DNA of 64,000 bases from an uncultured Alphaproteobacteria bacterium (GTDB lineage Bacteria; Pseudomonadota; Alphaproteobacteria; Methylaequorales; Methylaequoraceae): positions 1,764-65,763 of the forward strand of contig CABYVV010000002.1 of assembly GCA_902522465.1 (NCBI GenBank), given 5' to 3'. The notes beneath the pieces were generated by a model. The model worked only from the letters and a program-made list of their open reading frames with translations, had not been told where the DNA came from and did not search any database. Position 1 is the first letter of the stretch; each line of letters starts with the position of its first letter. Of the stretch, positions 9,442 through 64,000 are shown piece after piece. A program made the position numbers and the translations under genes.

Positions 9442-11621
9442 ATGTCTACAAATTTTTTATACCAAGAATTATTATATTTTATAAGTTTTTTTATGGGAAT
9501 TTTAAAATTATCTTCAACTATAAAATTATCAGTATTTTCAACAATAGCAACTTCGCTTATCTTAACTTTATTTTTTTTGGCTATTCTTTTAAAATCATCA
9601 GTACTGTTTAAAACCAAAAGATATCTAGATTGATCTTCTCCAAAAAACCATTCTTTGAGTTTTTTTGTATTCTTTGGTAGTTTTATTTTCATACCTTTCT
9701 TATTGCTAATACATAATTCTGCTAAAGCTAATAATAATCCACCATCAGAAATATCATGACAACCGGTGACTAAATCACCATAATCTTTCAAAAATTTCTT
9801 TACAAACATTCCATTTTTGTACTCTATTTTTAAGTTTAGTGGTGGAGGAGTGCCATCGTTATTTCCACAAATTCTATTATATTCAGAAAGTTCTAGGTGA
9901 CCATATGAATCGCCAATGATAAAGATCTTGTCATCAAGGTTTATTTTAAACCCTTTAATATTTTCTGTTTTATTTATCAATCCCACTCCTCCAATTACAG
10001 GAGTAGGAAATATAGATTTTTTTTTTGTTTCATTGTACAAAGAAACATTTCCGGAAACTACTGGAAATTTAAGATAGTCACATGCCATTTTTATTCCTTT
10101 AATTGATTCTTTAATTTGAAACATAATATGTTCCTTCTCTGGATTTCCAAAGTTGAGATTATCAGTTATTGCTATAGGTTCTGCTCCAGATGCAATCAGA
10201 TTCCTCCAAGACTCGGCTACTCCTATAGCAGAACCTAACTTTGGATCTGAATTACAAAAAATTGGATTACAATCACATGTTATAGCAATAGCTTTGTTGG
10301 TATCGTGTATTCTGACTATCGCTGCATCAGATTGTTCTGAAGACATTAGAGTATCGCCCATCACAGATCTATCATATTGTTCATATATCCATTTTTTTGA
10401 AGAATGGTTGGGGCCTGAAATCATTTTAAGCAATGCATGATGAATTGGAATATCTTTGTATTTTTTCTTTAATTTATTTTTTTTAAGTTTTTTTGCTGGC
10501 CTGTTATATTCTGGAGACATATCAGCAAGGGGTTTTATTGGTAACTTACCTACCATCTTTTTATTAAAAAAAAGTTCCATATCCCCCGAATCTGTTAAAT
10601 TACCTATCTCAACTGCATCTAGTCCCCATTTTTTAAAAACCTCTAAAGTCAATTTTTTTTTATTTGGTTTAATTATCATTAGCATTCTTTCTTGTGTTTC
10701 GGATAGCATTATTTCATAGGGACTCATTTTTTCTTCTCTACACGGAACTTTATCAAGATTTAGTTTAACACCACATGAGCCTTTTGATGCCATTTCGAAT
10801 GATGAAGAAGTTAAACCAGCTGCACCCATATCTTGTATAGCTATGATTGCATCTTGCTTCATTATCTCCTGACATGATTCTAACAAAAGTTTTTCAATGA
10901 AAGGGTCACCTACTTGAACTTGAGGTCTATTATCCTGAGTTTTGTCATCAAACTCAGCTGATGCCATGGTTGCTCCATGAATGCCATCTCGTCCTGTTTT
11001 TGAACCAACATATATAATGGGATTTCCGACTCCTTTAGCGGTTGAATAAAATATTTTATTTTTTTTTACCAGTCCAACGCACATAGCGTTTACTAGAATA
11101 TTGTTATTATAGCATTTATGAAAGAAGCATTCACCTCCAATAGTTGGGATCCCGACACAGTTTCCATAGTCTCCAATACCTTTTACAACTCCTGTTAATA
11201 GGCTTTTGGTTTTTGGGTGTTTAGGATCACCAAACCTTAGTGAATTTAAATTTGCTATAGGTCTTGCACCCATTGTAAATACATCTCTCATAATTCCACC
11301 GACACCAGTTGCAGCACCTTGATATGGTTCTATAAAAGACGGATGATTGTGACTTTCCATTTTGAAAACTAAAGCATCACCATCGTCTATATCAACAATT
11401 CCAGCATTTTCTCCAGGTCCACAAATTACTCGTTTTCCTGATGTGGGCAAAGTTTTTAACCATTTTTTTGTTGATTTATATGAACAGTGCTCACTCCACA
11501 TCACAGAGAAGATTCCTAATTCTAAAAGATTTGGTTCCCTTTTGATTATTTTCAAAATCATATTGAACTCAGCCAAACTGATCCCATGGTTCTCAATTAC
11601 TTCTTTGGAAATTTTACTCAT
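9438..11621 (-). CDS. purL: Phosphoribosylformylglycinamidine synthase subunit PurL
   Basis: 727 aa. Small-PurL motifs [17 protein letters not shown] and GVGGIMRD. Confidence 0.95.
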
Positions 11622-12307
11622 AAAAGTTCCTTAAGGCCTTCAAAAAAAATATTACCGTCTGCAGTTGATTTATCACTAATTGCTCTTTCTGGATGAGGCA
11701 TCATGCCTAAAATATTTTTTTTTTTATTTGTTATACCTGCAATATTATTTAATGAGCCGTTTGGATTATTTTTATTTTTAACTGACCCTTTATTTGAACA
11801 ATACCTAAAAATTACTTGTTCATTGTCCTCCAGCTTTTTAAGTGAATCTTTACTTGCGTAATAATTTCCTTGGCCATGAGCAATAGGAAACTTTAGTATG
11901 TCTTTTTTAATATTTTTTGAAAAAATTGATTTTTTGTTCTCGATTTTTAAAAAAATATCTTTGCAAATGAATAGTTGATTTTTATTTACTAAGAGTGATC
12001 CCTCAAGAAGCTTACACTCAGTTAATATTTGAAACCCATTACATATTCCAATTATTGGAACACCCTTTTTGGAGAAATTTATCACTTCTTTAATTGCTGG
12101 TGATTTAGTGGCTAGAATGCCAGCCCTCAAGTAATCTCCAAATGAAAACCCTCCGGGTATAAATATCATTTCGTGATGTTTTATTTTTGCTTCATTATGC
12201 CAAATATACTCTGTTTTCACATTGAGATGTTTCTGAATTGCAATTGCTAGATCTCTATCGCAATTTGAACCCGGAAAAACAATAATTGAAACAACTTTTT
12301 TTGGCAC
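11618..12307 (-). CDS. purQ: Phosphoribosylformylglycinamidine synthase subunit PurQ (glutaminase)
   Basis: Class I amidotransferase with [18 protein letters not shown] (nucleophile Cys) and MMPHPER. Confidence 0.93.
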
Positions 12308-12310
12308 CAG

Positions 12311-12544
12311 CTATTTCTTTAGAATTTTAAAATTTTCAATAACAGGATTTGATAACAGCTCTTCACTTAAATTTCTTATTTCTTCAAGTCCTGCTTTTTT
12401 TTCTGAAATCTCAATATCAAAAAACTTGCCCTTTGAAATATTTTTCATTGACTTGAATCCCATTCTCTTTGCAGTTTTTTTAATTGCTTCTGCCTCCGGA
12501 TCAAGAATACCCTTTTTATAATTCACAAAAACTCTATAGATCAT
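12311..12544 (-). CDS. purS: Phosphoribosylformylglycinamidine synthase subunit PurS
   Basis: 77 aa with [10 protein letters not shown] and a position between purC and purQ. Confidence 0.85.
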
Positions 12545-13292
12545 TTTTAATTACTTTTTTAAATTCATTTTCAGATAATACACCCAGTCTATATGCCACT
12601 TCCTTATATGCCTTATCTACATCACCTAGGTCCTGTCTAAATCTATCTTTATCTAATTTTTTATTGGTTTTTAGATCCCATAATCTACAATTGTCTGGGC
12701 TTATTTCGTCAGCTAAGATTACAGATGTTTCATCATTTTTCCAAAACCGTCCAAATTCTAATTTAAAATCTATTAGTCTGATATTGAGTGAAAAAAAATA
12801 TCCTGTTAGGAAATCATTAATTCTTGACGACAACGATATGATTTCTTCTAACTCATGATGTGAAGCCCAGTCAAACACGAGAATATGCTCCTCAGAAACT
12901 AATGGGTCATTTAATTTATCATCCTTAAGATAAAATTCGATTATAGGTCTTGATAAAATTTTTCCATCTTTAATTCCTAATCTTTTTACTAACGAACCTG
13001 TTGCAATATTTCTAACAACAACTTCAATTGGGATTATCTCAAGTTTTTTTATTAATTGTTCTCTCATATTAATTCTTTTAATAAAGTGAGTAGGAATGTT
13101 TATATCCTTTAATCTCGTCATTATTAGCTCGGAGATGAAATTATTAAGTACTCCTTTCCCAGGTATTTGAGCTTTTTTCTTATTATTAAATGCAGTGGCA
13201 TCATCTTTAAAATATTGAATTAGTGTGTTAGCCTCTGGTCCTTTATAGAGAATTTTAGCTTTTCCTTCATATAGTTTTTTTCTATTTTTCAT
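12534..13292 (-). CDS. purC: Phosphoribosylaminoimidazole-succinocarboxamide (SAICAR) synthase
   Basis: [19 protein letters not shown] and [12 protein letters not shown]. Confidence 0.93.
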
Positions 13293-17393: not shown

Positions 17394-17482
17394 GCGAGCG
17401 TGCTGAAATTGGTAAACAGACAGGACTTAAAATCCTGCGGGTGGCAACACCCTTGTGGGTTCAAGTCCCACCGCTCGCACCA
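17394..17482 (+). tRNA. tRNA-Leu (anticodon UAA), type II with long variable arm and encoded CCA
   Basis: Cloverleaf folded by hand. Acceptor GCGAGCG/CGCTCGC. Anticodon stem CAGGA/TCCTG with loop CTTAAAA. Variable arm GGGTG-GCAA-CACCC. T arm GTGGG-TTCAAGT-CCCAC. Discriminator A followed by CCA. Confidence 0.95.
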
Positions 17483-50014: not shown

Positions 50015-51484
50015 ATGAACAATTTAATCGAAGCCCTTACTTTTGATGATGTTCTGATAGTACCCTCAAAATCATCTGTCAAACCCTCTGATTCAAGTGT
50101 TACGACAAATTTGACTAGATCTATCAAGCTAAATATACCTTTAGTATCTGCAGCTATGGATACAGTAACTGAATCAAATTTAGCAATAAAGATTGCTCAG
50201 ATGGGAGGGTTAGGAATTATTCATAAGAATCTTGATTTAAAAGAGCAAGCTAATGAAGTGAGCAAAGTTAAAAGATTTGAGTCAGGTATGGTTGTGAATC
50301 CAGTTACGATAAATCCAGAATGTTCACTTAACGATGCATTGGAATTAAAGAAGAAATATAATATTTCAGGAATCCCCGTTGTTGAGCCAGTTACAAAAAA
50401 ATTAGTCGGAATTCTTACAAATAGAGACATAAGGTTTGCAATTAATCTTGAACAAAAAGTAAGTTCTTTGATGACCAAAGAGAATTTAATTACTGTACAA
50501 GAAAATATTTCAATGAATAATGCTCAAAAACTTCTTCATGAACATAGAATTGAAAAGTTGATTGTTGTTGACAATCAATATAAATGTGTAGGCTTGATCA
50601 CAGTAAAAGATATTGAAAAGGCTGAGAAATTTCCACTTGCATCAAAGGACAAATTTGGAAGACTTCTAGTTGGCGCTGCCGTTGGAGTAGGAGACAAAGA
50701 AGGCTTAGAAAGAGTAGAGTTATTAGAAAAATCAGGAGTAGACGTGATAGTGGTAGATACAGCCCATGGACACTCAAAAAATGTAATTGATATTTTAAAA
50801 AAAATTAAAAAAAAATTCTCACATCTTCAAGTTGTTGTAGGAAATATCGCAACAGCTGAGGCAGCTAAAGATCTAATAAAGGAAGGTGCAGACGCTCTCA
50901 AAGTTGGAATTGGTCCGGGTTCAATTTGTACTACAAGGATTGTTGCAGGTGTTGGAGTTCCTCAACTTCATGCAATTTCTGAGACTTATAAAATTGCAAA
51001 AAAAAATAATATTCCAATAATTTCTGATGGAGGTATTAAATATTCCGGTGATATTGCAAAAGCAATAGCTTTCGGAGCAGATGTAATAATGATTGGCTCT
51101 CTTTTCGCCGGAACTGACGAATCTCCTGGAGAAATCTTTCTATCTAATGGAAGAACATATAAATCTTACCGTGGTATGGGTTCTATTGCTGCTATGGGGA
51201 AAGGTTCTGCAGATAGATACTTTCAAGAAGAAATTATGAATAATGATAAATTTGTTCCTGAAGGAGTTGAAGGAAGAGTTCCTTACAGAGGAACGGTTGT
51301 AAAGATAATTGAACAATTAATTGGAGGTTTAAAAGCTTCAATGGGATATACTGGTAATAAGAACATAGTTGATTTCAAAAAGAATGTAAAAGTTATTAAA
51401 ATTACTTCCGCTGGTTTAAATGAAAGTCATGTGCATAGTATTTCAATCACAAGAGAGTCACCAAACTATCAACAGAACAAATGA
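50015..51484 (+). CDS. guaB: IMP dehydrogenase
   Basis: LTFDDVL, a CBS pair, the catalytic loop [11 protein letters not shown], and GGIKYSGD. Confidence 0.96.
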
Positions 51485-53031
51485 AAGAATCAATTCTAAT
51501 TATTGATTTTGGTTCTCAGGTAACGAAATTGATTGCTAGAAGAATTAGAGAAATTGGAGTTTTTAGTCAAATTATTCCATTCAATGAAATAAAAAAGGAT
51601 TGTGTAGATCTTAACAGTATAAAAGGAATAATTTTTTCTGGTGGTCCTAAATCTGTAAAAGAAAAAAATTCACCAAAAATTAAAAGCTTTATTTACGAAC
51701 TTGGAATTCCAATACTAGGCATCTGTTATGGATTACAATTAATAGCTAAGAACTTTGGTGGAGATGTAGGTCCTTCAACAGATAGAGAGTTTGGAAAAAG
51801 AGAACTGATATTAAAAAAAGAATCACCAATGTTCAGTAATATTATTGCCATCAATGAAGCCCAACAAATTTGGATGAGTCATTCAGATAAGATTTCATCA
51901 TTACCAAGTTCTTTTGAAAAAGTGGCATCTAGTCAAAACTGTGAGTATGCTGCAATTCAAAACCTAGAAAAAAAAATATTTGGCGTTCAATTTCATCCAG
52001 AAGTTGTTCATACTTTTGCTGGCCATAAAATTATAAGAAACTTTGTAAGAAATATTTGTAATTGTAAGGCTGACTGGAATATGAAATTATTTAAAAATAA
52101 AATTTTGACAGAAATCAAAAATAAAGTTGGAGATAATAAAGTTATTTGTGGACTATCAGGAGGAGTTGATTCAACAGTAACTGCAGCTCTTATTCATAAA
52201 GCAATAAAAAATAATATTATTTGTGTGTTTGTTGATACCGGATTTATGAGGTCCGGTGAAAGAAAACAAATACAAGAATTATTTAATAAAAATTTTCAAA
52301 TTAAATTAAAAGTAATAGATGCCAGTAAAATCTTTTTTGAGAAGTTAAAGAATGTCAAGGATCCTGAAAGAAAGAGAAAAATAATCGGTAAAGAATTCAT
52401 CAAAATTTTCGAAAATTTTGCTTTACAACAAAAAAATGTAAAATTTCTTGCACAGGGAACACTTTACCCAGATGTAATTGAATCAAATTCAAAAATTGGA
52501 GATACAAATGTTACTATCAAATCACATCATAATGTTGGAGGTTTACCAAAAAAAATGAAGCTCAAATTATTAGAACCTTTGAATGAATTATTTAAAGATG
52601 AGGTAAGAGAGCTAGGAAGAGAGTTAAAAATTCCTAAAACCTTTACAAACAGACATCCATTTCCAGGCCCTGGTTTGGCAATTAGATTACTGGGTAAAGT
52701 GAATAAAAAAGATATCACTATCTTGAGAGATGCTGATAAAATATTTATTCAACTGATCAAAGATGAAGGTTTATATGATGAAATATGGCAAGCTTTTTGT
52801 GTTATACTTCCAGTAAAAACCGTTGGTGTTATGGGAGACAGAAGGACATATGAAAAAATTTGTGTTTTAAGAGCAGTTACATCCGTAGACGGAATGACCG
52901 CAGAAGCATACAAGTTTAAGAGTGATTTTATAGAAAAGTGTGCTAGTGAGATTATTAATAAAGTGCCGGGAATAAATAGAGTATGTTATGATTATACTTC
53001 AAAACCACCTGGTACCATAGAGTATGAATAA
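51481..53031 (+). CDS. guaA: GMP synthase (glutamine-hydrolysing)
   Basis: GATase GICYGLQL / HPE, PP-loop GLSGGVDSTV, and a C-terminal GTIEYE. Confidence 0.96.
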   Translation: MKESILIIDFGSQVTKLIARRIREIGVFSQIIPFNEIKKDCVDLNSIKGIIFSGGPKSVKEKNSPKIKSFIYELGIPILGICYGLQLIAKNFGGDVGPSTDREFGKRELILKKESPMFSNIIAINEAQQIWMSHSDKISSLPSSFEKVASSQNCEYAAIQNLEKKIFGVQFHPEVVHTFAGHKIIRNFVRNICNCKADWNMKLFKNKILTEIKNKVGDNKVICGLSGGVDSTVTAALIHKAIKNNIICVFVDTGFMRSGERKQIQELFNKNFQIKLKVIDASKIFFEKLKNVKDPERKRKIIGKEFIKIFENFALQQKNVKFLAQGTLYPDVIESNSKIGDTNVTIKSHHNVGGLPKKMKLKLLEPLNELFKDEVRELGRELKIPKTFTNRHPFPGPGLAIRLLGKVNKKDITILRDADKIFIQLIKDEGLYDEIWQAFCVILPVKTVGVMGDRRTYEKICVLRAVTSVDGMTAEAYKFKSDFIEKCASEIINKVPGINRVCYDYTSKPPGTIEYE

Positions 53032-53045
53032 GTAAGATTTATAAA

Positions 53046-53921
53046 ATGATAAATGGAGATAACAAGTTATCATTTTTTAATCGAATTTATTATTTCGCAC
53101 AATGTGTTTTAAATCATAAAAAAGGTTCGAATTTTTATTTAAAGACTCTCACTCCTAAATTATCCATTAAAAATTTACAAACTAATAAACTAAGTCCTTC
53201 AAGATTGTTATGTGATGCTTTTTGGAATACTATTGATTTTAAATTTTTAGCAAAGCAATTAAATGCAAAATTAAATATTATTGATTTAGGATGTGGAAAA
53301 GGTGATTATGGTAATTTCATTAGGAAATTAGCAGATAAATCGTTTGATTCTTACACTGGATTAGATATTTACAAAGATGAAAAATTTCCATCTTATTTTC
53401 AACACATAAAATCTAAGGCAGAGGATGCTTATAAATTTTTAAAGAAAAATCACAATTTTATAATGAGCCAGTCGGCTTTAGAACATATTGAATCTGATTT
53501 TGATGCAATTAAAAAAATTACTAAAGTGCTTATTAAAAATAAAGAACCATTTATCCAAATTCATATGGTACCGTCTGCTTCTAGTTTGTGGTTATATTTG
53601 TGGCATGGTTGGAGACAATACTCAAGAACAAATCTTTCCTTATTAGCCGAAAGATTAATTGATGACTTTCCCCTAAATATTGCACTTGTCCCAATTGGAG
53701 GTAAAAATACATTCTTGACACATTTTCAAAATATTACTTTGCCATATTATACTGATAGAAAAATCAGAAAATATGGCTGGCATATCAGGAAAGGCGCTAC
53801 TGATAGGATTCTAAAATCAGTTCTTTTGGACTTGAATTGTAATAAAGAAAAAATGAATTCTTTTTGGGCATTTGTAATTTCAAGTGAGTCAGTTGAATTG
53901 CATTTCAAAAAAATTAAATAA
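53046..53921 (+). CDS. Class I SAM-dependent methyltransferase
   Basis: Motif I IIDLGCGKGDYG, with post-I GLDIY and SQSALEHI. I recognise no closer family. Confidence 0.6.
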   Translation: MINGDNKLSFFNRIYYFAQCVLNHKKGSNFYLKTLTPKLSIKNLQTNKLSPSRLLCDAFWNTIDFKFLAKQLNAKLNIIDLGCGKGDYGNFIRKLADKSFDSYTGLDIYKDEKFPSYFQHIKSKAEDAYKFLKKNHNFIMSQSALEHIESDFDAIKKITKVLIKNKEPFIQIHMVPSASSLWLYLWHGWRQYSRTNLSLLAERLIDDFPLNIALVPIGGKNTFLTHFQNITLPYYTDRKIRKYGWHIRKGATDRILKSVLLDLNCNKEKMNSFWAFVISSESVELHFKKIK

Positions 53922-53959
53922 AAAAAGAATATATGAGAACAATAATTTATTACATTTTA

Positions 53960-55273
53960 TTACTTTTGATCTATAAGTGATGTCTTTGTTTTTAAGAAGT
54001 CATTGATTTCTTTTAATGGGTGAAACCAGTTATTTAATTCTTTTTGTTTGAACTTTTTAACACATTTGTAGAGAACCCCATGATTTTTTTCATTCCATTT
54101 GGGGTCATAGATTTTAGAAAGTAAAAGAAGAGTTTTAACATCTAATAATGCTGATAAATGTACAAGAGATGTGTCTACAGAAACTACAAAGTCCATTTTG
54201 GATAAAAAGAATGCTGTATCAGTAAAATCTTCTAAGAAACTATCCAAATTATGAAGATTATCAATTTGGTTAATTATTTTATAATCATCGATATTAGATA
54301 TTTTTTGTAAAACAAAGAAACTAATATCTTTATTACTTAATATTTTTTCAAAAAATTCTAGTCTAACTGATCTAAAAGAATTTCTAGTTTGACTGGATCT
54401 ACCACTCCATGCAATGCCAACTTTAAGTTTTTTTTCTTCTATTAATCTATGAATATTTTGAGGATATTTTCTAATATTTTTGACAGAATTTACTTTTTTT
54501 AATTTTAAGGGCGTTCTGTTAATGTTTGATTTATAAAAAAGAAAAGGCAGACTCATACTAAAAACTTTATAGCTAAATGATTTCAAATCATTTTCTGTGA
54601 TAATTTTTTTTATTTTAACTTTTTCTAATCCAGAGATATTTTGAATTAAATCAAATAATTTTTCATTTATTAAATATGTTATATTAAACCCTAATTTTTG
54701 TAATCTAGCAATGTAATGACAAGCCATAAGTTGATCACCGAACCCCTGTTCTCCAATGATGAGAATATTTTTTTTCTTATCTATTAAGTTTAGATCTGTT
54801 ACCTCGATAAGGTGATTTTCTTTATAATTTTGATGTAGTAGTAAACATCTTTCTTTATCCCTCTCTTCATATAATGATAAGCCTTTAAAGTAATCACCTG
54901 AGGTTTGTTCTAACATGGAGAGATTCAACTTACCCCACTCAGATGTTTTATCAATTTCTAGAGTTTTTTTATAAAATTTTTTTGCTAGTTTAAATTTATT
55001 AGATTCATAATAAAAGAGACCGAGTGCACAAGTAACATTTGAATTTTGGGGATTTATTTTATATGCTGTTTCGAAACACATAAAAGACATTTCAAAATCA
55101 AGATTCTTGAGATGAGCAAATCCAAGTTCTACCCATATGTTGGAATCATGAGGATGGTTTTCTAAGAGTTTACTAAATAGGTTTATTCCTTCAATCAAAT
55201 CGCCTTGTGAGTATAAAAGATATGGCTTTGAATTAAGAATATCAGTATAACTATTTTTGTAAAAGGTCTCCAT
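53960..55273 (-). CDS. TPR-repeat protein fused to a GT9-like (heptosyltransferase-fold) glycosyltransferase domain
   Basis: N-terminal TPR-like repeats (..NIWVELGFAHLKNLDFEMSFMCFETAYKINPQN..). The C-terminal half has IGEQGFGDQLMACHYIARL and DFTDTAFFLSKMDFVVSVDTSLVHLSALL, matching the DTAAL..DLVI(S/T)VDT..HLA signature of this family. Confidence 0.65.
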   Translation of the reverse strand: METFYKNSYTDILNSKPYLLYSQGDLIEGINLFSKLLENHPHDSNIWVELGFAHLKNLDFEMSFMCFETAYKINPQNSNVTCALGLFYYESNKFKLAKKFYKKTLEIDKTSEWGKLNLSMLEQTSGDYFKGLSLYEERDKERCLLLHQNYKENHLIEVTDLNLIDKKKNILIIGEQGFGDQLMACHYIARLQKLGFNITYLINEKLFDLIQNISGLEKVKIKKIITENDLKSFSYKVFSMSLPFLFYKSNINRTPLKLKKVNSVKNIRKYPQNIHRLIEEKKLKVGIAWSGRSSQTRNSFRSVRLEFFEKILSNKDISFFVLQKISNIDDYKIINQIDNLHNLDSFLEDFTDTAFFLSKMDFVVSVDTSLVHLSALLDVKTLLLLSKIYDPKWNEKNHGVLYKCVKKFKQKELNNWFHPLKEINDFLKTKTSLIDQK

Positions 55274-55504: not shown

Positions 55505-56269
55505 ATGAAAGCTGTTATTCTAGCAGGCGGATTTGGAACTAGAATTTCTGAAGAGACCCATTTGAAACCAAAACCAATGATTGAAATTGGTGGAAAACCA
55601 ATAATTTGGCATATCATGAAACAATACTCGCAGCATGGTATAAATGATTTCATAATCTGTTGTGGATATAAAGGATATTTAATCAAAGAATACTTTTATA
55701 ATTATTCATTACATTTAACCGATATTACAATCAATACAAAAAATAATCAGACATGGTTTCATGACAACTATGCAGAAGACTGGAACGTAACACTTGTTGA
55801 TACTGGTGAAAATACAATGACTGGTGGAAGATTAAAAAGAATCTCAAGGTATTTGGACAATGAAGAGGATTTCTGCTTTACCTACGGAGACGGTATCGGT
55901 GATATAAATATTTCCAAAGCAATTAACGAACATAAAAAGAACGGAAAATTAGCTACAGTCACGGCAACTCAACCTCAAGGAAGGTTTGGTTCGCTTTCAT
56001 TAGATAAAGGTGAAATAAAAAGTTTCAAAGAAAAGCCAGCTGAGTGGATTAATGCAGGGTTTTTTGTGCTAAAAAAGAAAGTTATTGATAGAATTGATGG
56101 TGACAATTGTGCATGGGAAGAAAAACCCATGGAAAGTCTGGCATCTGAGGGTCAATTTTCGGTTTACTTTCACAATGGATTTTGGCAACCAATGGATACA
56201 TTAAGAGATAAAATTAAATTGGAAAAATTATGGAATAATGGTGACGCTCCCTGGAAAACATGGTCATGA
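55505..56269 (+). CDS. rfbF: Glucose-1-phosphate cytidylyltransferase
   Basis: MKAVILAGGFGTRISEETHLKPKPMIEIGGKPIIWHIM, and a C-terminal WQPMDTLRDK..LW..G.APWK. Confidence 0.92.
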   Translation: MKAVILAGGFGTRISEETHLKPKPMIEIGGKPIIWHIMKQYSQHGINDFIICCGYKGYLIKEYFYNYSLHLTDITINTKNNQTWFHDNYAEDWNVTLVDTGENTMTGGRLKRISRYLDNEEDFCFTYGDGIGDINISKAINEHKKNGKLATVTATQPQGRFGSLSLDKGEIKSFKEKPAEWINAGFFVLKKKVIDRIDGDNCAWEEKPMESLASEGQFSVYFHNGFWQPMDTLRDKIKLEKLWNNGDAPWKTWS

Positions 56270-57339
56270 AGAATTCCTTTTGGAATGGAAGAAGGGTTTT
56301 AATAACTGGTCACACTGGTTTTAAAGGTAGTTGGCTAACCTTATGGTTAAAAAATTTGGGAGCAAGTATTTGTGGTTATGCTTTAAAACCTGAATCTAAG
56401 AAATCTCTTTTTTACGAAGCAGATGTTTCGAAAGGTATAGAATCAAATTTTGCAAATATTCTTAATTATAAAGTTTTATGTGAAAAAATTCACAATTTTT
56501 CACCAGAAGTTGTTTTCCATCTTGCTGCCCAACCATTAGTGAAAAAGTCTTATCTATTTCCGCAAGATACTTTTTCAACTAACATTCATGGTACAATAAA
56601 TTTATTAGAATCATTAAGAGGCTGCAAAACAATAAGGTCAGTTGTTGTTGTAACAACAGATAAAGTTTATAAAAATAAAGAAAGCCAAGAGGGGTATAAA
56701 GAGACCGATACACTTGGTGGTTTTGATCCATATAGTAGCAGTAAAGCTTGTTGTGAAATTATAACAAATTGTTACAGATCTTCCTTTTTTAAAAACAAAA
56801 ATTTAAAAATTGGAATTGCCACCGCTAGAGCTGGGAATGTAATAGGTGGAGGCGATTATTCAGAGAATAGATTAGTACCGGATATATTTAGGTCAATAGA
56901 AGAAAAAAAAGCAATAAAAGTCAGAAATATAGGTTCTACCAGACCGTGGCAACATGTTTTGGAGGCATTAAATGGATATATAACTCTGGCAGAGTCACTT
57001 TATCATAATCATAAAAAATATTCTGAAGCCTGGAATTTTGGACCAAGATCTCAAGACTGTAGAAAAGTTAAATGGGTACTGAGTGAGTTTCAAAAAAAAC
57101 ATAATTTTGATATTATTGATATTTCTAATCATAGTAATGATTTTGAATCAAAAGCTCTAAATCTGGATATTTCTAAATCTCTTAAAAACCTAAGTTGGAA
57201 GCCATATTTACCAATTAATGAAGCAATACAACTTACTTCGCAATGGTTTAAACAAAAAGAAGGTGGAAGATTACCATCACAAATTATTAACGATCAAATA
57301 AATTATTATCAAGAAAAAATAAATGGTAATTTAAGTTAG
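56260..57339 (+). CDS. rfbG: CDP-glucose 4,6-dehydratase
   Basis: FWNGRRVLITGHTGFKGSWL, YSSSKACCE (YxxxK), and RPWQHVLE. Overlaps rfbF by 10 nt. Confidence 0.92.
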   Translation: MVMKNSFWNGRRVLITGHTGFKGSWLTLWLKNLGASICGYALKPESKKSLFYEADVSKGIESNFANILNYKVLCEKIHNFSPEVVFHLAAQPLVKKSYLFPQDTFSTNIHGTINLLESLRGCKTIRSVVVVTTDKVYKNKESQEGYKETDTLGGFDPYSSSKACCEIITNCYRSSFFKNKNLKIGIATARAGNVIGGGDYSENRLVPDIFRSIEEKKAIKVRNIGSTRPWQHVLEALNGYITLAESLYHNHKKYSEAWNFGPRSQDCRKVKWVLSEFQKKHNFDIIDISNHSNDFESKALNLDISKSLKNLSWKPYLPINEAIQLTSQWFKQKEGGRLPSQIINDQINYYQEKINGNLS

Positions 57340-57351
57340 TCTAACCTTAAG

Positions 57352-58446
57352 TTACTTAAGACTATTATAAAACTTAACAGTTTTCGTAATTGAACTCTCA
57401 AGAGATGTAAAAACTCTTAAGTTATTCTTTTTTGCTAAATTTATGTTAGGAACGTATGCAGTTGATAAAAATTGTGGTTTATTTTCAGTTAAAATCTGAA
57501 TATTTCTTTTAGTAATTTTTTTTACTAAACAAGCCACTTCATATAATGAATAAGCCTCATCTGATCCGACGTTTATGGTGAGAAATCTTTTTTCACATAT
57601 TAAAATTTTTAACAACCAAATAACAAGATCAGATGTATACATATAACTTCTAACTGAAGATCCATCGCTATGAATTACAATATCTGAATTCGTAGTTGCG
57701 GATTTTATAAAGTTACCTATTGCAAAGTGAGTGTCGATTGGAAGCCATGGGCCAACAAATGAAAAGCATCTGGCAATTTTAATCGTTTTTTCATTTTTTT
57801 CTGTTGCCCAATAATTACAAAGTAATTCTGCAGTTTTCTTAAAAATACCGCTGGCATCGTTAAAATTTGAGGAGTCCAAGTAAAATCCAGAACTTTCGAT
57901 AATTTTTGTAAAGTTTTTTGAAGGCTGTTTTCCATATACTGAACCTGAGGAAATATAAAGAATATTATTAATTTTTTTTTTATTAGCAAAATCTAAAATG
58001 TTTTTAGTACCCTTAATTATCACTTCCGATAAATTAAAAATATTTTGGTGTGCTTCAATGGTGGCTTCAGTAGCACCATGTATAATATGAGTAAAATCAT
58101 TTTCATTTGTCGAAAAATTAATAATATTTCCTTCAATAAAAAAAAGTTCTTTATAATTTCTTACCTCAGGAAACTTATTTATAAACCTAGTTGGATTTCT
58201 TGATAAAACAAAAATTTTGATATTTAAATTTAATGATACATTTAAATGTAAAAGGCTACTCAAAATAGACTTTCCAAAAAATCCTGTTCCCCCAGTTATC
58301 AATATTTTTGCATTTTTAAGCTTTACAATTGATGTTTTTAATTCAGATAGAACAAAATTTAAATCATCATTACAAATGTTAAAAATACTGGGTTTCTCAG
58401 GCTTCACAAAGATTAGTATGGCATTATAATTGCAGCAAATAAACAC
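57352..58446 (-). CDS. Extended-SDR (NAD-dependent epimerase/dehydratase/reductase fold) protein, atypical active site
   Basis: Rossmann ILITGGTGFFGKS and YISSGSVYG. Where YxxxK is expected I read SGIFK. The start may be the internal GTG at 58407 rather than GTG 58446. Confidence 0.65.
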   Translation of the reverse strand: MFICCNYNAILIFVKPEKPSIFNICNDDLNFVLSELKTSIVKLKNAKILITGGTGFFGKSILSSLLHLNVSLNLNIKIFVLSRNPTRFINKFPEVRNYKELFFIEGNIINFSTNENDFTHIIHGATEATIEAHQNIFNLSEVIIKGTKNILDFANKKKINNILYISSGSVYGKQPSKNFTKIIESSGFYLDSSNFNDASGIFKKTAELLCNYWATEKNEKTIKIARCFSFVGPWLPIDTHFAIGNFIKSATTNSDIVIHSDGSSVRSYMYTSDLVIWLLKILICEKRFLTINVGSDEAYSLYEVACLVKKITKRNIQILTENKPQFLSTAYVPNINLAKKNNLRVFTSLESSITKTVKFYNSLK

Positions 58447-58462
58447 TTTTTAAACAAATTAA

Positions 58463-60367
58463 ATGGACAAAATAAATTATAATCAAGAATCTCTAATAAA
58501 TAATTTGGAAGAAAAAAAATTTAAATTTAGAGAATTAAATTTTAAAAAAAAAAAAGATACTCTTTCATATCTTTTATTTGATTATCTTTCAAAAATTGGA
58601 ACAAAAGCTGTTTTTCTTGTTCCTGGAGGTGGAAATATGTTTCTTGTTGATGCAGTAGGAAGACATCCAGATATAAAATGTATTTGCACTCATAATGAAC
58701 AATCTGCTGTAATTGCTGCAGAAGCATATTCAAGACTCAATAAAGGGATAGGGGTTGCATTAGTAACAACTGGTCCAGGTGCTACCAATTCAGTAACAGG
58801 TATAGCAGGTTCATGGATTGATTCTATTCCTCTTTTAGTCATTTCGGGGCAGGTTAAAACTGATGATATTAATTTTGAAAAAAAACTGAGGCAAAAAGGT
58901 CCACAAGAAGTTGACATAGTTTCGATGGTTAAAGGTATAACCAAACATTCTGAAACAATTACAGATCACAAGAATTTTCTAAAAAAACTTAGCAAAATTA
59001 TAAATCTCTCAAAAAATGGAAGGCCAGGACCATGTTTGATAGATATACCTCTAGACATTCAATCTAAAAAGGTCAAGATACCTCTTGACTACAAATCTTT
59101 CCTAGAGAATGAAAAAATTGAAGTTAAAAAACAAATACCGGATGATTTAATTCATAAGATTATAAAATCAAAGAAACCACTTTTTTTGATGGGACATGGT
59201 ATTAAAAGTTCAAAATCAGAAAAATTAGCCATAGAATTGATAAAGCACTCAAATATTCCTGTATGTGTTACCTGGCCAATGATAGACCTTCTAGCATTTA
59301 ATGATCCTCTTTACGTAGGAAGACCTGGAGTAGTTGCAAAACGAAACGCTAATTTAACAATACAAAACTGCGATTTATTAATTAGTATTGGAGCAAGATT
59401 AGATAGAATTGTTACGGCTTTCAATTCAGATAATTTTGCAAAAAATGCAGAAATTTATTGTATTGATATTGACAAGGCTGAACTAAAGAAGCATCCAAAG
59501 AGATTTAATAAATTAAAATTTGATTGTAAATACTTCTTGTCAGATTTATTGATCAAGCTAAAGAATCACAAATATAATAATAACAATACAAAATGGATAA
59601 ATTTTTGTAAAAACCTCAAAACAAAGTATGGCAAAAGTGAATCGAGAAAAAAAAAGAGTATGAGTATTTATAATACTGTAAATTTTTTGTCAAAAATAAT
59701 ACCATCTGATAGTACCATTGTTACAGGAAGTTCTGGTTTATGTATTGAAGTTTTTTACACACATTTTGAAAATAAAAAGAATCAAAAAACATTTCTCACA
59801 ACAGGTTTAGGTTCAATGGGTTATGGATTTCCAGCTTTAGTTGGCGCTAGTTCACAAATTAAAAAAAAATTATTTTTATATGAAGGTGATGGAAGCGCGA
59901 TGATGAACCTTCAAGAGTTACAAACTTTAAAAACAAACAATTGTAAAGCAAAAATTTTTCTCATAAATAATCAAGGTTATGTATCTATAAGAAATACCCA
60001 AAAAAATTATTTTAAAGGAAGATTTATAGGAATTAACAAAAAATCTGGAATGGAGACCTCCTCTATATCAAAAATTGCTAAGGCAATCGGTATCAAATCA
60101 TATGTTATAAAGAAATATTCTGATTTTAATAAAATCAAAGAGACATTAAATAAGGATGAACTTATTATTTATGAAATTTTTGTAAATAAGGACGAAAAAT
60201 TAGTTCCTAAATGTTCAGCATACAAATTGGATAATGGGGCAATGGTTTCATCACCAATAGAGGATATGACACCTTTAATAGAGATTGAGGAATTAAAAAA
60301 ACTTATCCCAGGTCCAATTGATCAGAGATCATATTCAATGAGAGAGGTAAGAAATGAAACAACTTAA
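58463..60367 (+). CDS. Thiamine-diphosphate-dependent enzyme, acetolactate-synthase-large-subunit-like
   Basis: N-terminal PYR domain (LVPGGGNMFLVDA, HNEQSAVIAAEAYSR, TTGPGATNSVTGIA). C-terminal ThDP motif GDG-X24-NN (YEGDGSAMMNLQELQTLKTNNCKAKIFLINNQGY). Confidence 0.8.
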   Translation: MDKINYNQESLINNLEEKKFKFRELNFKKKKDTLSYLLFDYLSKIGTKAVFLVPGGGNMFLVDAVGRHPDIKCICTHNEQSAVIAAEAYSRLNKGIGVALVTTGPGATNSVTGIAGSWIDSIPLLVISGQVKTDDINFEKKLRQKGPQEVDIVSMVKGITKHSETITDHKNFLKKLSKIINLSKNGRPGPCLIDIPLDIQSKKVKIPLDYKSFLENEKIEVKKQIPDDLIHKIIKSKKPLFLMGHGIKSSKSEKLAIELIKHSNIPVCVTWPMIDLLAFNDPLYVGRPGVVAKRNANLTIQNCDLLISIGARLDRIVTAFNSDNFAKNAEIYCIDIDKAELKKHPKRFNKLKFDCKYFLSDLLIKLKNHKYNNNNTKWINFCKNLKTKYGKSESRKKKSMSIYNTVNFLSKIIPSDSTIVTGSSGLCIEVFYTHFENKKNQKTFLTTGLGSMGYGFPALVGASSQIKKKLFLYEGDGSAMMNLQELQTLKTNNCKAKIFLINNQGYVSIRNTQKNYFKGRFIGINKKSGMETSSISKIAKAIGIKSYVIKKYSDFNKIKETLNKDELIIYEIFVNKDEKLVPKCSAYKLDNGAMVSSPIEDMTPLIEIEELKKLIPGPIDQRSYSMREVRNETT

Positions 60368-61253
60368 TCAAAACTTTAATAATCTACCTAAGGATAGAAT
60401 TGCGGAATTTTGTATTTGTTGTGGATCGAAAAAATTAAAAAATAGTCCTGCAGTTTTAATGCCTTTTGTGGCTGAACGAGTCTTCAATTGGAGGCAAATT
60501 AAAATAGATAAAACCTGGGGACTTAAAACAATAAAAAACGGTCAGACATATTCTATATGTAACACGTTATTATGTAATGAATGTAATTTTTTATTTTTAG
60601 ATATTAGATTTTCAGACAGAGAACTTTCAAATCTTTATACTAACTACAGAGGTGTTAAGTATACTAAACTCAGAGAGAAACACGAAAAGGATTATAAAAA
60701 AAGAAATAAAGATTTAATTAAAGGCATAACTTATTTAGACGATGTAGAGAAATTTATTTCGAAAAACATAAAATTACCAGCATCTATATTAGATTGGGGA
60801 GGTGATACTGGAAAAAATACACCTTTTAAAAATCATAGTAAAAAAATTCATATTTATGATTTAGGAAACTCAAACACTGTAAGAGGGACAAAAAAAATAA
60901 GTAAAATAGATTTAAAAAATAGAAAATATGAATTAGTTATATGTAGTAATGTGCTTGAACATGTTTCTTATCCATCTGAGACACTTTTCGATATAAAAAA
61001 ACATATGAGTTTAAAATCATTACTTTATATTGAACTTCCTTATGAAAAACTGATTATGGAAATTGAAGATAAAAAAAAAACATACAAAGATAAGAGACAT
61101 TGGCATGAGCACGTGAATTTTTTTTCAAAAAAATCAATATTAAAATTATTAAAAAAATGTAAACTTAAAATAATTGATTTTAGAAAACTTGATGTGCCTG
61201 AAGGAAATTTCTCACTTATGCAAATTATTTGTAGAAAGGATTTAGACCAATAA
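60354..61253 (+). CDS. SAM-dependent methyltransferase with an N-terminal four-Cys zinc-ribbon
   Basis: CICCGS...CNTLLCNECNF, then ..LSNLYTNY.., then a class I MTase core (ILDWGGDTG, VICSNVLEHV). Overlaps the upstream ThDP gene by 14 nt. Confidence 0.65.
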   Translation: MKQLNQNFNNLPKDRIAEFCICCGSKKLKNSPAVLMPFVAERVFNWRQIKIDKTWGLKTIKNGQTYSICNTLLCNECNFLFLDIRFSDRELSNLYTNYRGVKYTKLREKHEKDYKKRNKDLIKGITYLDDVEKFISKNIKLPASILDWGGDTGKNTPFKNHSKKIHIYDLGNSNTVRGTKKISKIDLKNRKYELVICSNVLEHVSYPSETLFDIKKHMSLKSLLYIELPYEKLIMEIEDKKKTYKDKRHWHEHVNFFSKKSILKLLKKCKLKIIDFRKLDVPEGNFSLMQIICRKDLDQ

Positions 61254-61257
61254 ATCA

Positions 61258-62724
61258 ATGAGACCTCGAAGAATTTATAGGACACCGACAACAGTAGATC
61301 TAGAAATTACAGATATTTGTAATGAAAAATGCGTCTATTGTTTTAATTTTGATAGGGATCTTTCAATGGGATCCCTGAAACTTGATAAAGAAAAAATAGA
61401 TCATTTAGTCAGACAATTTGTAAATTTTGAAGTTTTTCACGTTATATCGTCTGGTGGGGAAGCCTTTGCTAACTTTGAAATGCTATTGTATCTTAATGAA
61501 AAGCTCAAAGAAAATAATATTTCAACTTCAATTAACAGTAATCTTTCCATTAAAGCAAAGAGAATAGAGAGGTTACAAAGATTATTTGACTCCGGATGTG
61601 ATCACATTTTAACAAGTTTACCTTCCTATCTATCTGATGTAACAAATAAGCTAGTTAACAGTAAAAATGCATTTGATAGAATAACAAGTGGAATTGAAGA
61701 TGCTGTGAAAATAGGATTTAGGGTTAGTGCTAATATGGTTGTACATAATTCTAATAAAAATCAAGTTTATTTGACGGCGAAACTTGCCAGTGAATTGGGA
61801 TGTCAGAGAGTTTTTGCTACACGAATTGTTGGTCCTGATTACGAAACTGAGGTAGATTATGATAATACAAATGATGAAAATCCTAATATATTATCAAAAA
61901 AATCAGCATTAGAGTGTTTGGATCAACTTATAAAAGCTAGAGACGAATTTGGAATTGATGTTAGCACTATAGTAAGCTATCCACTTTGTTTGCTCGGTGA
62001 TCTCCAAAGGTATGCAGACTTTGTAGGAAGAGGTTGTCCAACTCAAAGAGGTCATAGATTAAATATCCTGCCTAATGGAGACATTAGATCGTGTGTACAT
62101 CTTTCGTCAGAAAGGTTGGGGAATGTCTTTAATGATGAAATTGATTTATCTGAGCAGTATAAAAAACTTAGAAACTGGCATGATGGATCATTAGCTTTTA
62201 ATGAATGTAGAAAATGTGATTATAAGTATGTATGTAATAGTGGGTGTAGGGTTGACGCTAAGGCTTATTCGGGCAAACTAAATGGAAAAGATCCGTTGAT
62301 GGTTGGTCCGATTATTAACGGAAAGATTCATGGTAAATCACTTAGGAATTTTGTTCCATTTAAAATTACCTACGACAAAAAAACAAGAGAAATTATACAA
62401 ACGAGTGATTTTATAGTTAATGAAGGGGCTAGATTTAGATATGAAGATAATTTTTATTTATGTAGCGTTAAATATGGAAATATAATTGAAATTGATTATG
62501 ATGTTGCAAAATTTCTTATAGAGAAACAAAAGTCAAATCTTTCATTCAATCTAACAGAATTTGGTGAAGCAAGAATTCAAATTATGATTGATTACTTCTG
62601 TAAAGATTTAATTAGAAGTGTTGACAACAAATTGAATGAAATGAGAAATAAAAATTTATTAAAAAAAGGCCTTGGCATTGACCCCAATAATCTTCCAGAA
62701 TATGACCAATTTATTTTTAAGTAA
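61258..62724 (+). CDS. Radical SAM / SPASM-domain enzyme with a ~135-aa C-terminal extension
   Basis: CX3CX2C (ITDICNEKCVYCF) and the full SPASM signature: CX13GX4C (CPTQRGHRLNILPNGDIRSC), then CX2CX5CX3C (CRKCDYKYVCNSGC). Starts 4 nt after the methyltransferase stop. Confidence 0.85.
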   Translation: MRPRRIYRTPTTVDLEITDICNEKCVYCFNFDRDLSMGSLKLDKEKIDHLVRQFVNFEVFHVISSGGEAFANFEMLLYLNEKLKENNISTSINSNLSIKAKRIERLQRLFDSGCDHILTSLPSYLSDVTNKLVNSKNAFDRITSGIEDAVKIGFRVSANMVVHNSNKNQVYLTAKLASELGCQRVFATRIVGPDYETEVDYDNTNDENPNILSKKSALECLDQLIKARDEFGIDVSTIVSYPLCLLGDLQRYADFVGRGCPTQRGHRLNILPNGDIRSCVHLSSERLGNVFNDEIDLSEQYKKLRNWHDGSLAFNECRKCDYKYVCNSGCRVDAKAYSGKLNGKDPLMVGPIINGKIHGKSLRNFVPFKITYDKKTREIIQTSDFIVNEGARFRYEDNFYLCSVKYGNIIEIDYDVAKFLIEKQKSNLSFNLTEFGEARIQIMIDYFCKDLIRSVDNKLNEMRNKNLLKKGLGIDPNNLPEYDQFIFK

Positions 62725-62729
62725 TTTAT

Positions 62730-64000
62730 TTATATAACACCTTTAATTCTAATTGTTGGATCACTTAAGTTCTCAAAAGTTTTTTTATACTTGGAAGATA
62801 CAATTGAGCTTTGAAAAATTTTTGCAGCTTCACTGTAAATACTGTTATCCCAATATTCAAACAAAGGAAAAGGAAAAGTTTTAGGTATTTCTTCCATATA
62901 GAAATTCATAAATTTAAGTGCATTATTTTGTTTAAAATTAGGCAAAGTGAATTTTTTATTTTTAATAAAAAAGTTAATTTTTTTAAAATAATCTGTCGAA
63001 CTTTTTGGATCATATTGAATATTTTTACCCCACGCAGCGCCCTTTCCACCAGAAACTACTGGTTTTTTCTTTACAACCATTTCCCAACCTATGTCTGAAG
63101 AATACACTAAACCTAAATCAGCTATATCTATTAAACCATATGTATTTATTGATGTTTGACTTGGTAGTATAACAAAATTGTCTGCAAGCTTATCAAAATA
63201 ATTATTGATATATCTTTCACATGACATGTTACAATTTGTTAATTTTTCGGCTGGATGAGGTCTAATAATAATATTACAGTTCTTTTTTGGAATTAAAAAT
63301 TCTATTGTTTTTTTTAACCAATCAAAATGAGATTGGAATAAGTAATTTGTTTTTCTAGTTAGAACAGTTGTATCAAATGAGAGATTAGTAAGAATTAAGA
63401 TTGTGTAGGAGTCTTTTTTTAGAAATAATTTTTTATAAATTATTTCTTTTTTTAGGGGATCTTCGGAGTGAAAATTTAAGAAGACATTTTTTTTATAAAA
63501 TTTCTTTTTTGAAACTCTATCAATCGTAAAATAAGATTTACGAATTTTATTGTTTCTCATTCTCTTCCAAGCTTCATCAATATTTAAATTATTAAAAGGA
63601 GTATTTTTTGAAATTATAATACTGTTTTTGTCATTCCTGTATCCGTAACAAGTTATAGTTTTATTTAGTTCCTTAAGAATTGAAAATGCCACGCCGTATT
63701 CTGCCCATGATCCACTATCAATTATATGATTATCAAATCTATTTCTTTTGATAAATGATTTAAATTTAACAGCAAAATTCAAATTTCTTTTTTGAATTTT
63801 CTCAAATATCTTTTTATTTTTGTTATTTTTTTCATAAAGAGGATTTTTCAGAATTCTCTGAATATCCTCTTCAGTCTGACGATAAATTTCCTTTTTTAAT
63901 TTTACAGAAATATATAGATTCTTGTCAGTAAAATCTTTTTTGTATTCAACATTAATTTCATTATTCTTTATAACTTTGAGTAATGATGAAAACGTTCTTT
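62730..64000 (-). CDS. Capsule-biosynthesis (KpsC/KpsS-like, PF05159-type) putative glycosyltransferase, 5' end outside the window
   Basis: I hand-translated the frame and it stays open from the track's TTG (63782) to the window edge (..RTFSSLLKVIKNNEINVEYKK..KIQKRNLNFAVKF..), so the CDS is partial. Motifs TILILTNLSFDTTVL, IIRPHPAEK and LVYSSDIGWEMVVKKKPVV resemble KpsC/S-type enzymes by eye. Confidence 0.5.
   Translation of the reverse strand, partial: RTFSSLLKVIKNNEINVEYKKDFTDKNLYISVKLKKEIYRQTEEDIQRILKNPLYEKNNKNKKIFEKIQKRNLNFAVKFKSFIKRNRFDNHIIDSGSWAEYGVAFSILKELNKTITCYGYRNDKNSIIISKNTPFNNLNIDEAWKRMRNNKIRKSYFTIDRVSKKKFYKKNVFLNFHSEDPLKKEIIYKKLFLKKDSYTILILTNLSFDTTVLTRKTNYLFQSHFDWLKKTIEFLIPKKNCNIIIRPHPAEKLTNCNMSCERYINNYFDKLADNFVILPSQTSINTYGLIDIADLGLVYSSDIGWEMVVKKKPVVSGGKGAAWGKNIQYDPKSSTDYFKKINFFIKNKKFTLPNFKQNNALKFMNFYMEEIPKTFPFPLFEYWDNSIYSEAAKIFQSSIVSSKYKKTFENLSDPTIRIKGVI

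Follow-up and report, generated by a model that had tools for sequence, protein, structure and literature searches.

We wanted to determine which sugar or sugars are built by a group of six genes in a 64-kb stretch of DNA (hereafter referred to as the window; G+C content of ~29%) on contig CABYVV010000002.1 of an uncultured alphaproteobacterium, whose closest genomes, assembled from single cells and metagenomes, bear the labels Alphaproteobacteria, Rickettsiales, and Pelagibacteraceae, i.e. SAR11-type. The genes encode the cytidine diphosphate (CDP)-sugar enzymes RfbF and RfbG, a short-chain dehydrogenase/reductase (SDR), a thiamine diphosphate (ThDP)-dependent enzyme, an S-adenosylmethionine (SAM)-dependent methyltransferase with a zinc ribbon, and a radical-SAM/SPASM enzyme. 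The original prediction was that all six act in one undescribed pathway in which the radical-SAM enzyme and the SDR replace the dehydrase E1 (DdhC) and its reductase E3 (DdhD), or perform another radical step on a CDP-sugar. Our analysis points elsewhere: we consider it reasonably likely that two separate nucleotide sugars are made, with a module for a YerE-type branched CDP-dideoxyhexose and a module for a cytidine monophosphate (CMP)-ulosonate interleaved in a SAR11-type surface-glycan island. The six open reading frames (ORFs), their junctions, and their motifs, as previously described, all matched the re-read sequence, and their length and strong profile matches indicate that they are not chance ORFs. 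They are listed here with the partial gene that follows them.

55505-56269, + strand: rfbF, glucose-1-phosphate cytidylyltransferase (TIGR02623 equivalog, 425.7 bits, cut-off 300; Pfam NTP_transferase).
56260-57339, + strand: rfbG, CDP-glucose 4,6-dehydratase (TIGR02622 equivalog, 449.7 bits, cut-off 278); overlaps rfbF by 10 nucleotides.
57352-58446, - strand: extended SDR, proposed YerF-like reductase (Pfam Epimerase and 3Beta_HSD); converges 12 nucleotides after rfbG.
58463-60367, + strand: putative YerE/JanthE-like ThDP carboligase (TPP_enzyme_N/M/C; PF02776, PF00205, PF02775); 16-nucleotide divergent gap to the SDR gene.
60354-61253, + strand: Zn-ribbon class I SAM methyltransferase (Methyltransf_23); overlaps the ThDP gene by 14 nucleotides.
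61258-62724, + strand: radical-SAM/SPASM enzyme (PF04055, 71.8 bits; TIGR04085, 48.6 bits, cut-off 27); starts 4 nucleotides after the methyltransferase gene.
62730-64000, - strand: conserved unknown protein, C-terminal ~420 codons; converges 5 nucleotides from the radical-SAM gene and leaves the window at its end.

Both RfbF and RfbG scored above the cut-offs of their equivalog hidden Markov models, which places them in the entry pathway to CDP-3,6-dideoxyhexoses and bears out the claim that they make CDP-4-keto-6-deoxyglucose. The same claim had been coupled to the statement that no ddhC or ddhD is present. This is true of the 64-kb window, inside which phmmer searches found no ORF for RfbH, NeuB, a CMP-transferase, or a TylF-type methyltransferase, but it probably does not hold as an absence of E1. 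The last 11 kb of the window is collinear with three loci from close relatives (L001, L004, and L005), at 83-86% nucleotide identity up to the last base, and each of the three carries the minus-strand operon onward, past the point that corresponds to the window end, with one shared gene order: a 496-amino acid protein, a TylF-type methyltransferase, a short NeuB, a cytidylyltransferase-HAD fusion, a DegT-family protein, and a GT2 glycosyltransferase. The ORF at the window edge matches the 496-amino acid protein of L001 (positions 11473-12963) with a phmmer score of 695 bits, and this protein is the first gene product of the convergent operon in the relatives. The DegT-family protein (439 amino acids), whose gene lies in each of these loci ~3 kb past the point matching the window end, is RfbH/DdhC, i.e. 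E1 (NF011936, 703 bits, cut-off 423), and carries the hallmarks of that enzyme, namely a His in place of the PLP-binding Lys (SFYPAHH) and a Cys-rich [2Fe-2S] stretch. We conclude that E1 most probably seemed to be absent only because the window stops short of its gene.

The ThDP protein (634 amino acids) contains all three ThDP domains and the motif GDG(475-477)-X24-NN, which spans residues 475-503. When the matches to solved structures were ranked by bit score, 8rph came first (324 bits, with an alignment covering residues 33-628 and thus the C-terminal extension), followed by 5ahk (240 bits), which we take to be PpYerE, whereas acetohydroxyacid synthase (AHAS) structures reached 206 bits at most. 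Judged by this ranking, the protein is YerE-like and closer to YerE-like enzymes than to AHAS, with JanthE and PpYerE its best solved relatives. Structures exist for PpYerE and JanthE (PMC12247030); 8rph is JanthE of Janthinobacterium sp. HH01, a YerE-like ketone-accepting carboligase whose physiological substrates are themselves unknown (PMC12188165). As seen in the alignment, JanthE has a CDG motif where the window protein has the canonical GDG. We then scanned metagenomes with an alignment of seven family members and obtained 80 loci with homologues of 33-46% identity, 26 of which had enough flank (>5 kb upstream and >3 kb downstream) for neighbors to be counted. Here, rfbH was present in 23 and rfbF in 21 of the 26 loci, and the usual order was rfbF-rfbG-rfbH-(keto-acid-forming enzyme)-ThDP. 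Over 200 YerE-like enzymes are said to have been predicted by Krug in 2024, and Lanza is said to have devoted a paper to JanthE in the same year. The structure ranking and the rfb linkage both support the predicted role of a YerE-like enzyme that branches a CDP-ketosugar, and by analogy the window enzyme would add an acyl branch at C-4 of a CDP-4-ketosugar. Further, a crude motif screen (plant-type 2Fe-2S plus RxYS) detected an E3-like ORF in none of the 80 loci, and no Fer2, FAD-, or NAD-binding Pfam domain occurs among the genes called in the 21-kb L001 locus. As this screen found it in none of the 80 ThDP loci, the lack of E3 is a family trait and not a gap for the radical-SAM enzyme to fill. 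Other genes recur near the ThDP homologues: a DJ-1/PfpI-family gene (~180 amino acids) adjoins the ThDP gene in 9 of the 80 loci (L112, L120, L134, and six more), and HAD_2 phosphatases and FkbM-type methyltransferases occur in 20 and 13 loci, respectively.

The gene directly 3' of the ThDP gene encodes the Zn-ribbon methyltransferase, which belongs to a family with >1,000 matches and ~50% identity across phyla. Six of its cysteines (C20, C22, C23, C69, C74, and C77, of which C20/C23 and C74/C77 form the four-Cys pairs) are invariant in 22 homologues, as is the motif HWHEH. Fold searches had been suggested as a check on both this protein and the radical-SAM enzyme; for the latter they gave generic SPASM relatives only (see below), but for the methyltransferase they were informative. 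With an AlphaFold2 (AF2) model of the protein (pLDDT of 88.6), the best 18 Foldseek matches in the PDB were MtmC, TcaB9, and KijD1, aligned over ~310 columns with TM-scores of 0.40-0.44 (normalized to the target), and only then came generic methyltransferases aligned over 200 columns. In a profile alignment, H203, W250, E252, and H253 of the window protein fell on H181, Y222, E224, and H225 of TcaB9, a register confirmed by the entry for the TcaB9 Y222F mutant. TcaB9, MtmC, and KijD1 are C3-methyltransferases of nucleoside diphosphate (NDP)-4-ketohexoses and, like the window protein, consist of an N-terminal four-Cys Zn module and a class I SAM fold; the equivalents of TcaB9 H181, E224, and H225 are invariant in the window family. 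In contrast to these enzymes, the window protein, at 299 amino acids, is without the C-terminal domain (Methyltransf_14), has Trp at the position of TcaB9 Tyr222, and carries an insert of ~50 amino acids in its Zn ribbon. Neither Methyltransf_13 nor Methyltransf_14 was matched, Methyltransf_23 being the sole Pfam match. We therefore do not file the protein as a member of the TcaB9-type family, because the C-terminal domain is lacking, although its fold and catalytic residues suggest that it works like these enzymes. With respect to context, a C-methyltransferase of the Methyltransf_23+Methyltransf_14 type fills the slot 3' of the ThDP gene in 19 of the 80 loci, and members of the window family occur with rfbF/G/H, ThDP, and NeuB genes (L076, L077, and L111), but also among glycosyltransferases for the lipopolysaccharide (LPS) core with no NDP-sugar genes nearby (L074, Methylopumilus). 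By analogy, we propose that the window methyltransferase would C-methylate beside a keto group.

The best solved relative of the SDR is the CDP-6-D-fructose reductase HS5.17 of Campylobacter jejuni (8v4g/8v4h; 81 bits), a CDP-linked ketone reductase with which it has an N-terminal helix in common. Outside the SAR11 clade, 18 loci that carry a ThDP gene, namely L077 and 17 from the set of 80, also have an SDR of the same family (107-244 bits), which, where the position is apparent, adjoins the ThDP gene. The SDR and the methyltransferase are plausible tailoring partners of the ThDP enzyme, as had been predicted, and reduction of a side-chain ketone by the SDR, as by YerF, would be the natural role. 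The active site speaks less clearly: at residues ~198-203, the window SDR and its SAR11 orthologue read S-G-I-F/L-K where 11 of 13 homologues located next to ThDP genes have Y-x-x-x-K, i.e. the Lys is invariant but the catalytic Tyr is a Ser. The enzyme may use another proton donor or be inactive. We also note that only 16 nucleotides (58447-58462) separate the divergent starts of the SDR gene (GTG) and the ThDP gene. Two promoters would not fit into so small a gap, and the alternatives are a mis-called SDR start and promoters located within the neighboring genes; the SDR homologues and the HS5.17 alignment begin near residue 28 of the SDR.

The radical-SAM/SPASM enzyme keeps different company. 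It carries the superfamily's cluster motif C21-x3-C25-x2-C28 and a seven-Cys SPASM domain (C244, C260, C279, C317, C320, C326, and C330), all invariant in 23 homologues. Because exact look-up of the protein returned no record, a 91%-identical relative stood in for it. Homologues of at least 40% identity are widespread, and a profile search gave 747 representatives (E ≤ 1e-30); among cultured bacteria, Azospirillum tabaci W712 (L044) carries the radical-SAM module. When genomes representing single species were scanned, 70 loci were obtained, the neighbors of which were annotated with the island's own proteins and by de novo clustering. For the counts that follow we used the 62 loci that have a clear relative of the radical-SAM protein, with duplicates set aside, and considered neighbors within 8 kb; these loci span Alphaproteobacteria, Campylobacterales, Desulfobacterota, Nitrospinota, Planctomycetota, Prochlorococcus, and archaea. 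NeuB and/or a CMP-transferase was present in 57 of the 62 loci, a TylF-type methyltransferase in 31 (at a median distance of 107 bp), a B12-dependent radical-SAM enzyme in 17, and a NeuC-like 2-epimerase in 16. ThDP enzymes, on the other hand, were present in only 4, and Rfb genes in few. A cytidylyltransferase domain was found in 51 loci of a 73-locus set that includes duplicates and remote matches. Reciprocally, none of the 80 ThDP loci contained this radical-SAM protein or a cytidylyltransferase domain. Thus, the six genes are not, as the original prediction supposed, one co-inherited set. Because NeuB, CMP-transferase, and TylF-type genes are its conserved neighbors across phyla, the radical-SAM enzyme was assigned to the CMP-ulosonate module, and gene neighborhood indicates that it is a component of CMP-ulosonate (nonulosonate-like) clusters and not of a CDP-sugar pathway. 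No paper linking such an enzyme to NeuB-type clusters was found in the searchable literature, and the protein reached no NCBIfam equivalog. Our best guess is that it would abstract a hydrogen atom from an ulosonate or CMP-ulosonate, leading to oxidation, epimerization, or deoxygenation.

The proximity of NeuB and a CMP-transferase to the radical-SAM gene is thus established for the family, and for this island it is seen only in the collinear relatives. Their NeuB is short (287 amino acids; 271 bits on TIGR03569), and their HAD domain, which resembles KDN-9-P phosphatase and KdsC, is fused to a PseF-like cytidylyltransferase. Together these mirror the synthase, the KDN-9-P/KdsC-type phosphatase, and the CMP-transferase of the CMP-Kdn and CMP-nonulosonate pathways. 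Compared with those pathways, NeuB, HAD, and CMP-transferase of the relatives all score under the curated cut-offs, NeuB is short and without the SAF domain, and a TylF-type methyltransferase and radical-SAM tailoring are added. The 496-amino acid protein, present in 8 of the radical-SAM loci, had no PDB match and gave a single sub-threshold Pfam hint (Capsule_synth, PF05159, E = 0.024); this faint likeness to KpsS/KpsC-type proteins would suit an ulosonic-acid transferase. In the scheme that we favor, the short NeuB, the HAD-CMP-transferase fusion, the TylF-type methyltransferase, and the 496-amino acid protein (in the relatives, past the window edge), together with the radical-SAM enzyme of the window, would produce a CMP-ulosonic acid, the radical-SAM enzyme most likely acting on the ulosonate or CMP-ulosonate.

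The CDP-dideoxyhexose module would operate in parallel as follows. RfbF would form CDP-glucose and RfbG would convert it to CDP-4-keto-6-deoxyglucose, from which RfbH would remove the 3-OH to yield CDP-4-keto-3,6-dideoxyglucose, with an electron donor that, as is the rule in the family, would be encoded outside the cluster. The ThDP enzyme, to judge from its family and gene context, would decarboxylate an α-keto acid (pyruvate or a longer one) and transfer the acyl group onto the C-4 carbonyl, creating a tertiary-alcohol branch. The divergent SDR could then reduce the side-chain ketone (compare YerF), despite the Ser in place of its catalytic Tyr, and the methyltransferase could methylate the carbon beside a keto group, in either the 4-keto intermediate or the side chain. 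The claim that no characterized pathway has this combination of genes did not survive comparison with the literature. A “unifying scheme” for acyl-branched sugars has been published that comprises deoxy-ketosugar genes, an α-keto-acid-forming enzyme, a ThDP enzyme, and a reductase, and in Rhodopseudomonas palustris also a SAM methyltransferase; it covers the gene clusters of erwiniose, caryophyllose, gastriose, and the branched sugar of R. palustris (PMC9306805; see also PMC12247030). The island has CDP-glucose synthesis, 4,6-dehydration, E1 (as seen in the collinear relatives), a three-domain ThDP carboligase that would branch C-4, and a putative NAD(P)H reductase in common with these clusters and with yersiniose A biosynthesis in Yersinia pseudotuberculosis (DdhA/B/C/D, YerE, and YerF), and a SAM methyltransferase in common with the R. 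palustris cluster. It differs from them in that it is without E3 and without a class II aldolase gene, its JanthE-type ThDP enzyme has an extended C-terminus, its reductase is without the catalytic Tyr, its methyltransferase is a shortened TcaB9-like enzyme, and, in the relatives, E1 shares its operon with genes for NeuB, a CMP-transferase, and TylF.

Several observations weigh against the scheme that we favor. The radical-SAM gene is co-directional with the ThDP-methyltransferase pair and only 4 nucleotides away from it, and rfbH lies within the NeuB/CMP-transferase/TylF operon; a distant alphaproteobacterium (L055) shows the modules interleaved in the same way, and in L002 a ThDP gene stands inside a radical-SAM/NeuB module, the nearest 10 kb being free of Rfb genes. 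Such repeated mixing of the modules argues that they may be coupled in function. Further, the window ends before rfbH, NeuB, the CMP-transferase, and TylF, so that their presence is deduced from relatives of 85% identity, and the island is likely to be a variable one; the SAR11 SDR is without its catalytic Tyr, which makes a reductase role uncertain; and no E3-type reductase was found anywhere in the 80 ThDP loci or in L001. The main alternative is a single convergent pathway, in which the short NeuB and the HAD phosphatase would make a 2-keto-3-deoxy (ulosonic) acid, possibly tailored by TylF and the radical-SAM enzyme, and the JanthE-like enzyme would decarboxylate this acid and join it to CDP-4-keto-3,6-dideoxyglucose. 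The product would be a branched sugar of higher carbon number, akin to caryophyllose, with NeuB in the place of the class II aldolase of the published scheme. We regard this as a possibility to be taken seriously, if not as the probable one. In 34 of the 80 ThDP loci (e.g. L079 3782-5326, L082 8264-9965, and L098 2813-4251), the ThDP gene has a NeuB-like gene as its immediate neighbor, which encodes either a NeuB+Cupin_2 fusion (~510 amino acids) or a short NeuB with a KdsC-like HAD (~190 amino acids) after it. This neighbor takes up the place between rfbH and ThDP, which in 6 loci goes to an HMGL-like aldolase. No cytidylyltransferase domain was detected in any of these NeuB-ThDP loci. That NeuB stands in the aldolase slot with no CMP-transferase nearby suggests that NeuB-type synthases can supply the α-keto-acid donor. 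In a neighbor-joining tree, the NeuB of the relatives fell into the same short-NeuB clade as that of RfbFGH-NeuB-HAD-ThDP loci, but the tree separated “donor-supplying” from “CMP-pathway” NeuBs too poorly to assign the island copy. It is also relevant that ErwE, MMAR_2332, and MyGE take hydroxylated C4-C8 keto acids (PMC9306805). What keeps us from preferring a convergent pathway is, first, the fusion of the HAD to a PseF-like CMP-transferase, which points to an ulosonate that is activated with CMP and itself serves as glycosyl donor, and, second, the fact that the radical-SAM family is nearly always found with a CMP-transferase and without a ThDP enzyme. Moreover, the NeuB module of L055, with its NeuC-like epimerase, looks like an ordinary UDP-GlcNAc-derived nonulosonate route, and no YerE-like enzyme is known to take an ulosonic acid.

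We also considered whether the radical-SAM enzyme acts not on a sugar but on a peptide or protein (e.g. a glycan acceptor) bound through its C-terminal domain. In a fold search, the protein matched generic SPASM enzymes only (SuiB, PqqE, SkfB, anSME, BlsE, and DesII; E of ~1e-13 to 1e-11), and its best relatives in structure and sequence are the peptide-modifying SuiB, PqqE, SkfB, and anSME. It resembles PqqE, SuiB, anSME, BlsE, and DesII in its CX3CX2C core and seven-Cys SPASM domain but, at an identity of only 13-19%, differs from them in its NeuB/CMP-transferase/TylF context and in a conserved C-terminal domain of its own (~120 amino acids, residues ~368-488), in which RFR, N, F, K, and G do not vary. 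The AF2 model has three strands followed by three helices at residues ~392-448, a topology that in our reading appears RRE-like and would suit a PqqD/RRE-like peptide-binding role. Yet the C-terminal domain had no Pfam or PDB sequence match, the flanking gaps of 4 and 5 nucleotides leave no space for a precursor-peptide gene, the conserved neighbors are sugar enzymes, and the sugar-acting BlsE and DesII scored nearly equally in the fold search. A peptide substrate is thus, in our judgment, unlikely.

We find it hard to sustain the proposal that the radical-SAM enzyme and the SDR replace E1/E3 or carry out another radical step in an undescribed six-gene CDP-sugar pathway. The proposal draws on the co-directional, tightly packed arrangement of the radical-SAM gene with the ThDP and methyltransferase genes, on E3 not having been found, and on the presence of the sugar-acting BlsE and DesII among the fold matches. 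These two stand there only within the generic SPASM matches, at 12-19% identity, and the genes around the radical-SAM family are those for NeuB and CMP-transferase and not NDP-hexose genes. Tight gene spacing, however, is the norm in this streamlined genome, and rfbH is present in all three collinear relatives, so that a ddhC gene just past the window, a finding that the original prediction itself had named as fatal to the idea, is what every close relative has. The surveys agree: the radical-SAM protein is in none of the 80 ThDP loci, whereas rfbH is in 23 of the 26 with enough flank, and 58 of the 62 radical-SAM loci are without a ThDP gene, with Rfb genes in few. With rfbH in the collinear relatives and the gene set not co-inherited, we rejected the radical-SAM enzyme as a substitute for E1/E3. 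It is next to inconceivable that the ThDP protein serves branched-chain amino-acid synthesis as an ordinary acetolactate synthase, and this reading was likewise rejected, for although AHAS models are its top NCBIfam matches by E-value, it falls far under the cut-off of every one of them (best TIGR00118, 334.8 bits versus 538), YerE-like structures outscore AHAS structures, no small-subunit ORF like ilvN or ilvH flanks the gene, and its homologues are located in rfbFGH clusters.

The glycan island starts straight after guaB/guaA, and two further genes lie at its start.

53046-53921, + strand: class I methyltransferase (Pfam/NCBIfam).
53960-55273, - strand: TPR and GT9-like protein (Pfam/NCBIfam).

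Both are kept in the relative L005, and L001 shows the TPR/GT9-like gene only. When the region 50015-55273 was compared with L074 of Candidatus Methylopumilus, we noted that the homologue of the Zn-ribbon methyltransferase in that locus also adjoins guaA/guaB, among GT9 heptosyltransferase-like genes. Insertions may recur at the guaB/guaA edge, or the neighborhood there may be one of the LPS core that has been conserved. An Rfam scan of the window gave one tRNA (17394-17479, + strand) as its sole match, and thus no riboswitch or other RNA tied to the cluster.

Overall, by its gene content the CDP part of the island is a further case of the known YerE-type branched-sugar scheme. SAR11 bacteria are among the most abundant organisms in the ocean, and their variable surface-glycan islands are thought to shape interactions with phage and grazers. 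An island that would encode both a yersiniose-like branched dideoxyhexose and a tailored ulosonic acid provides concrete targets for glycan analysis. Beyond this organism, two regularities are worth attention: many YerE-type clusters hold a NeuB-like gene in the aldolase slot and have no CMP-transferase close by, and a sizeable radical-SAM/SPASM family, found from Prochlorococcus to archaea, is tied to NeuB, CMP-transferase, and TylF genes and has no described function. If the two modules were to converge on one sugar, NeuB-type synthases would be a second, widespread source of donors for YerE-type branching (34 of 80 loci), and a radical-SAM family of 747 representatives (E ≤ 1e-30) with no characterized member would gain a function.

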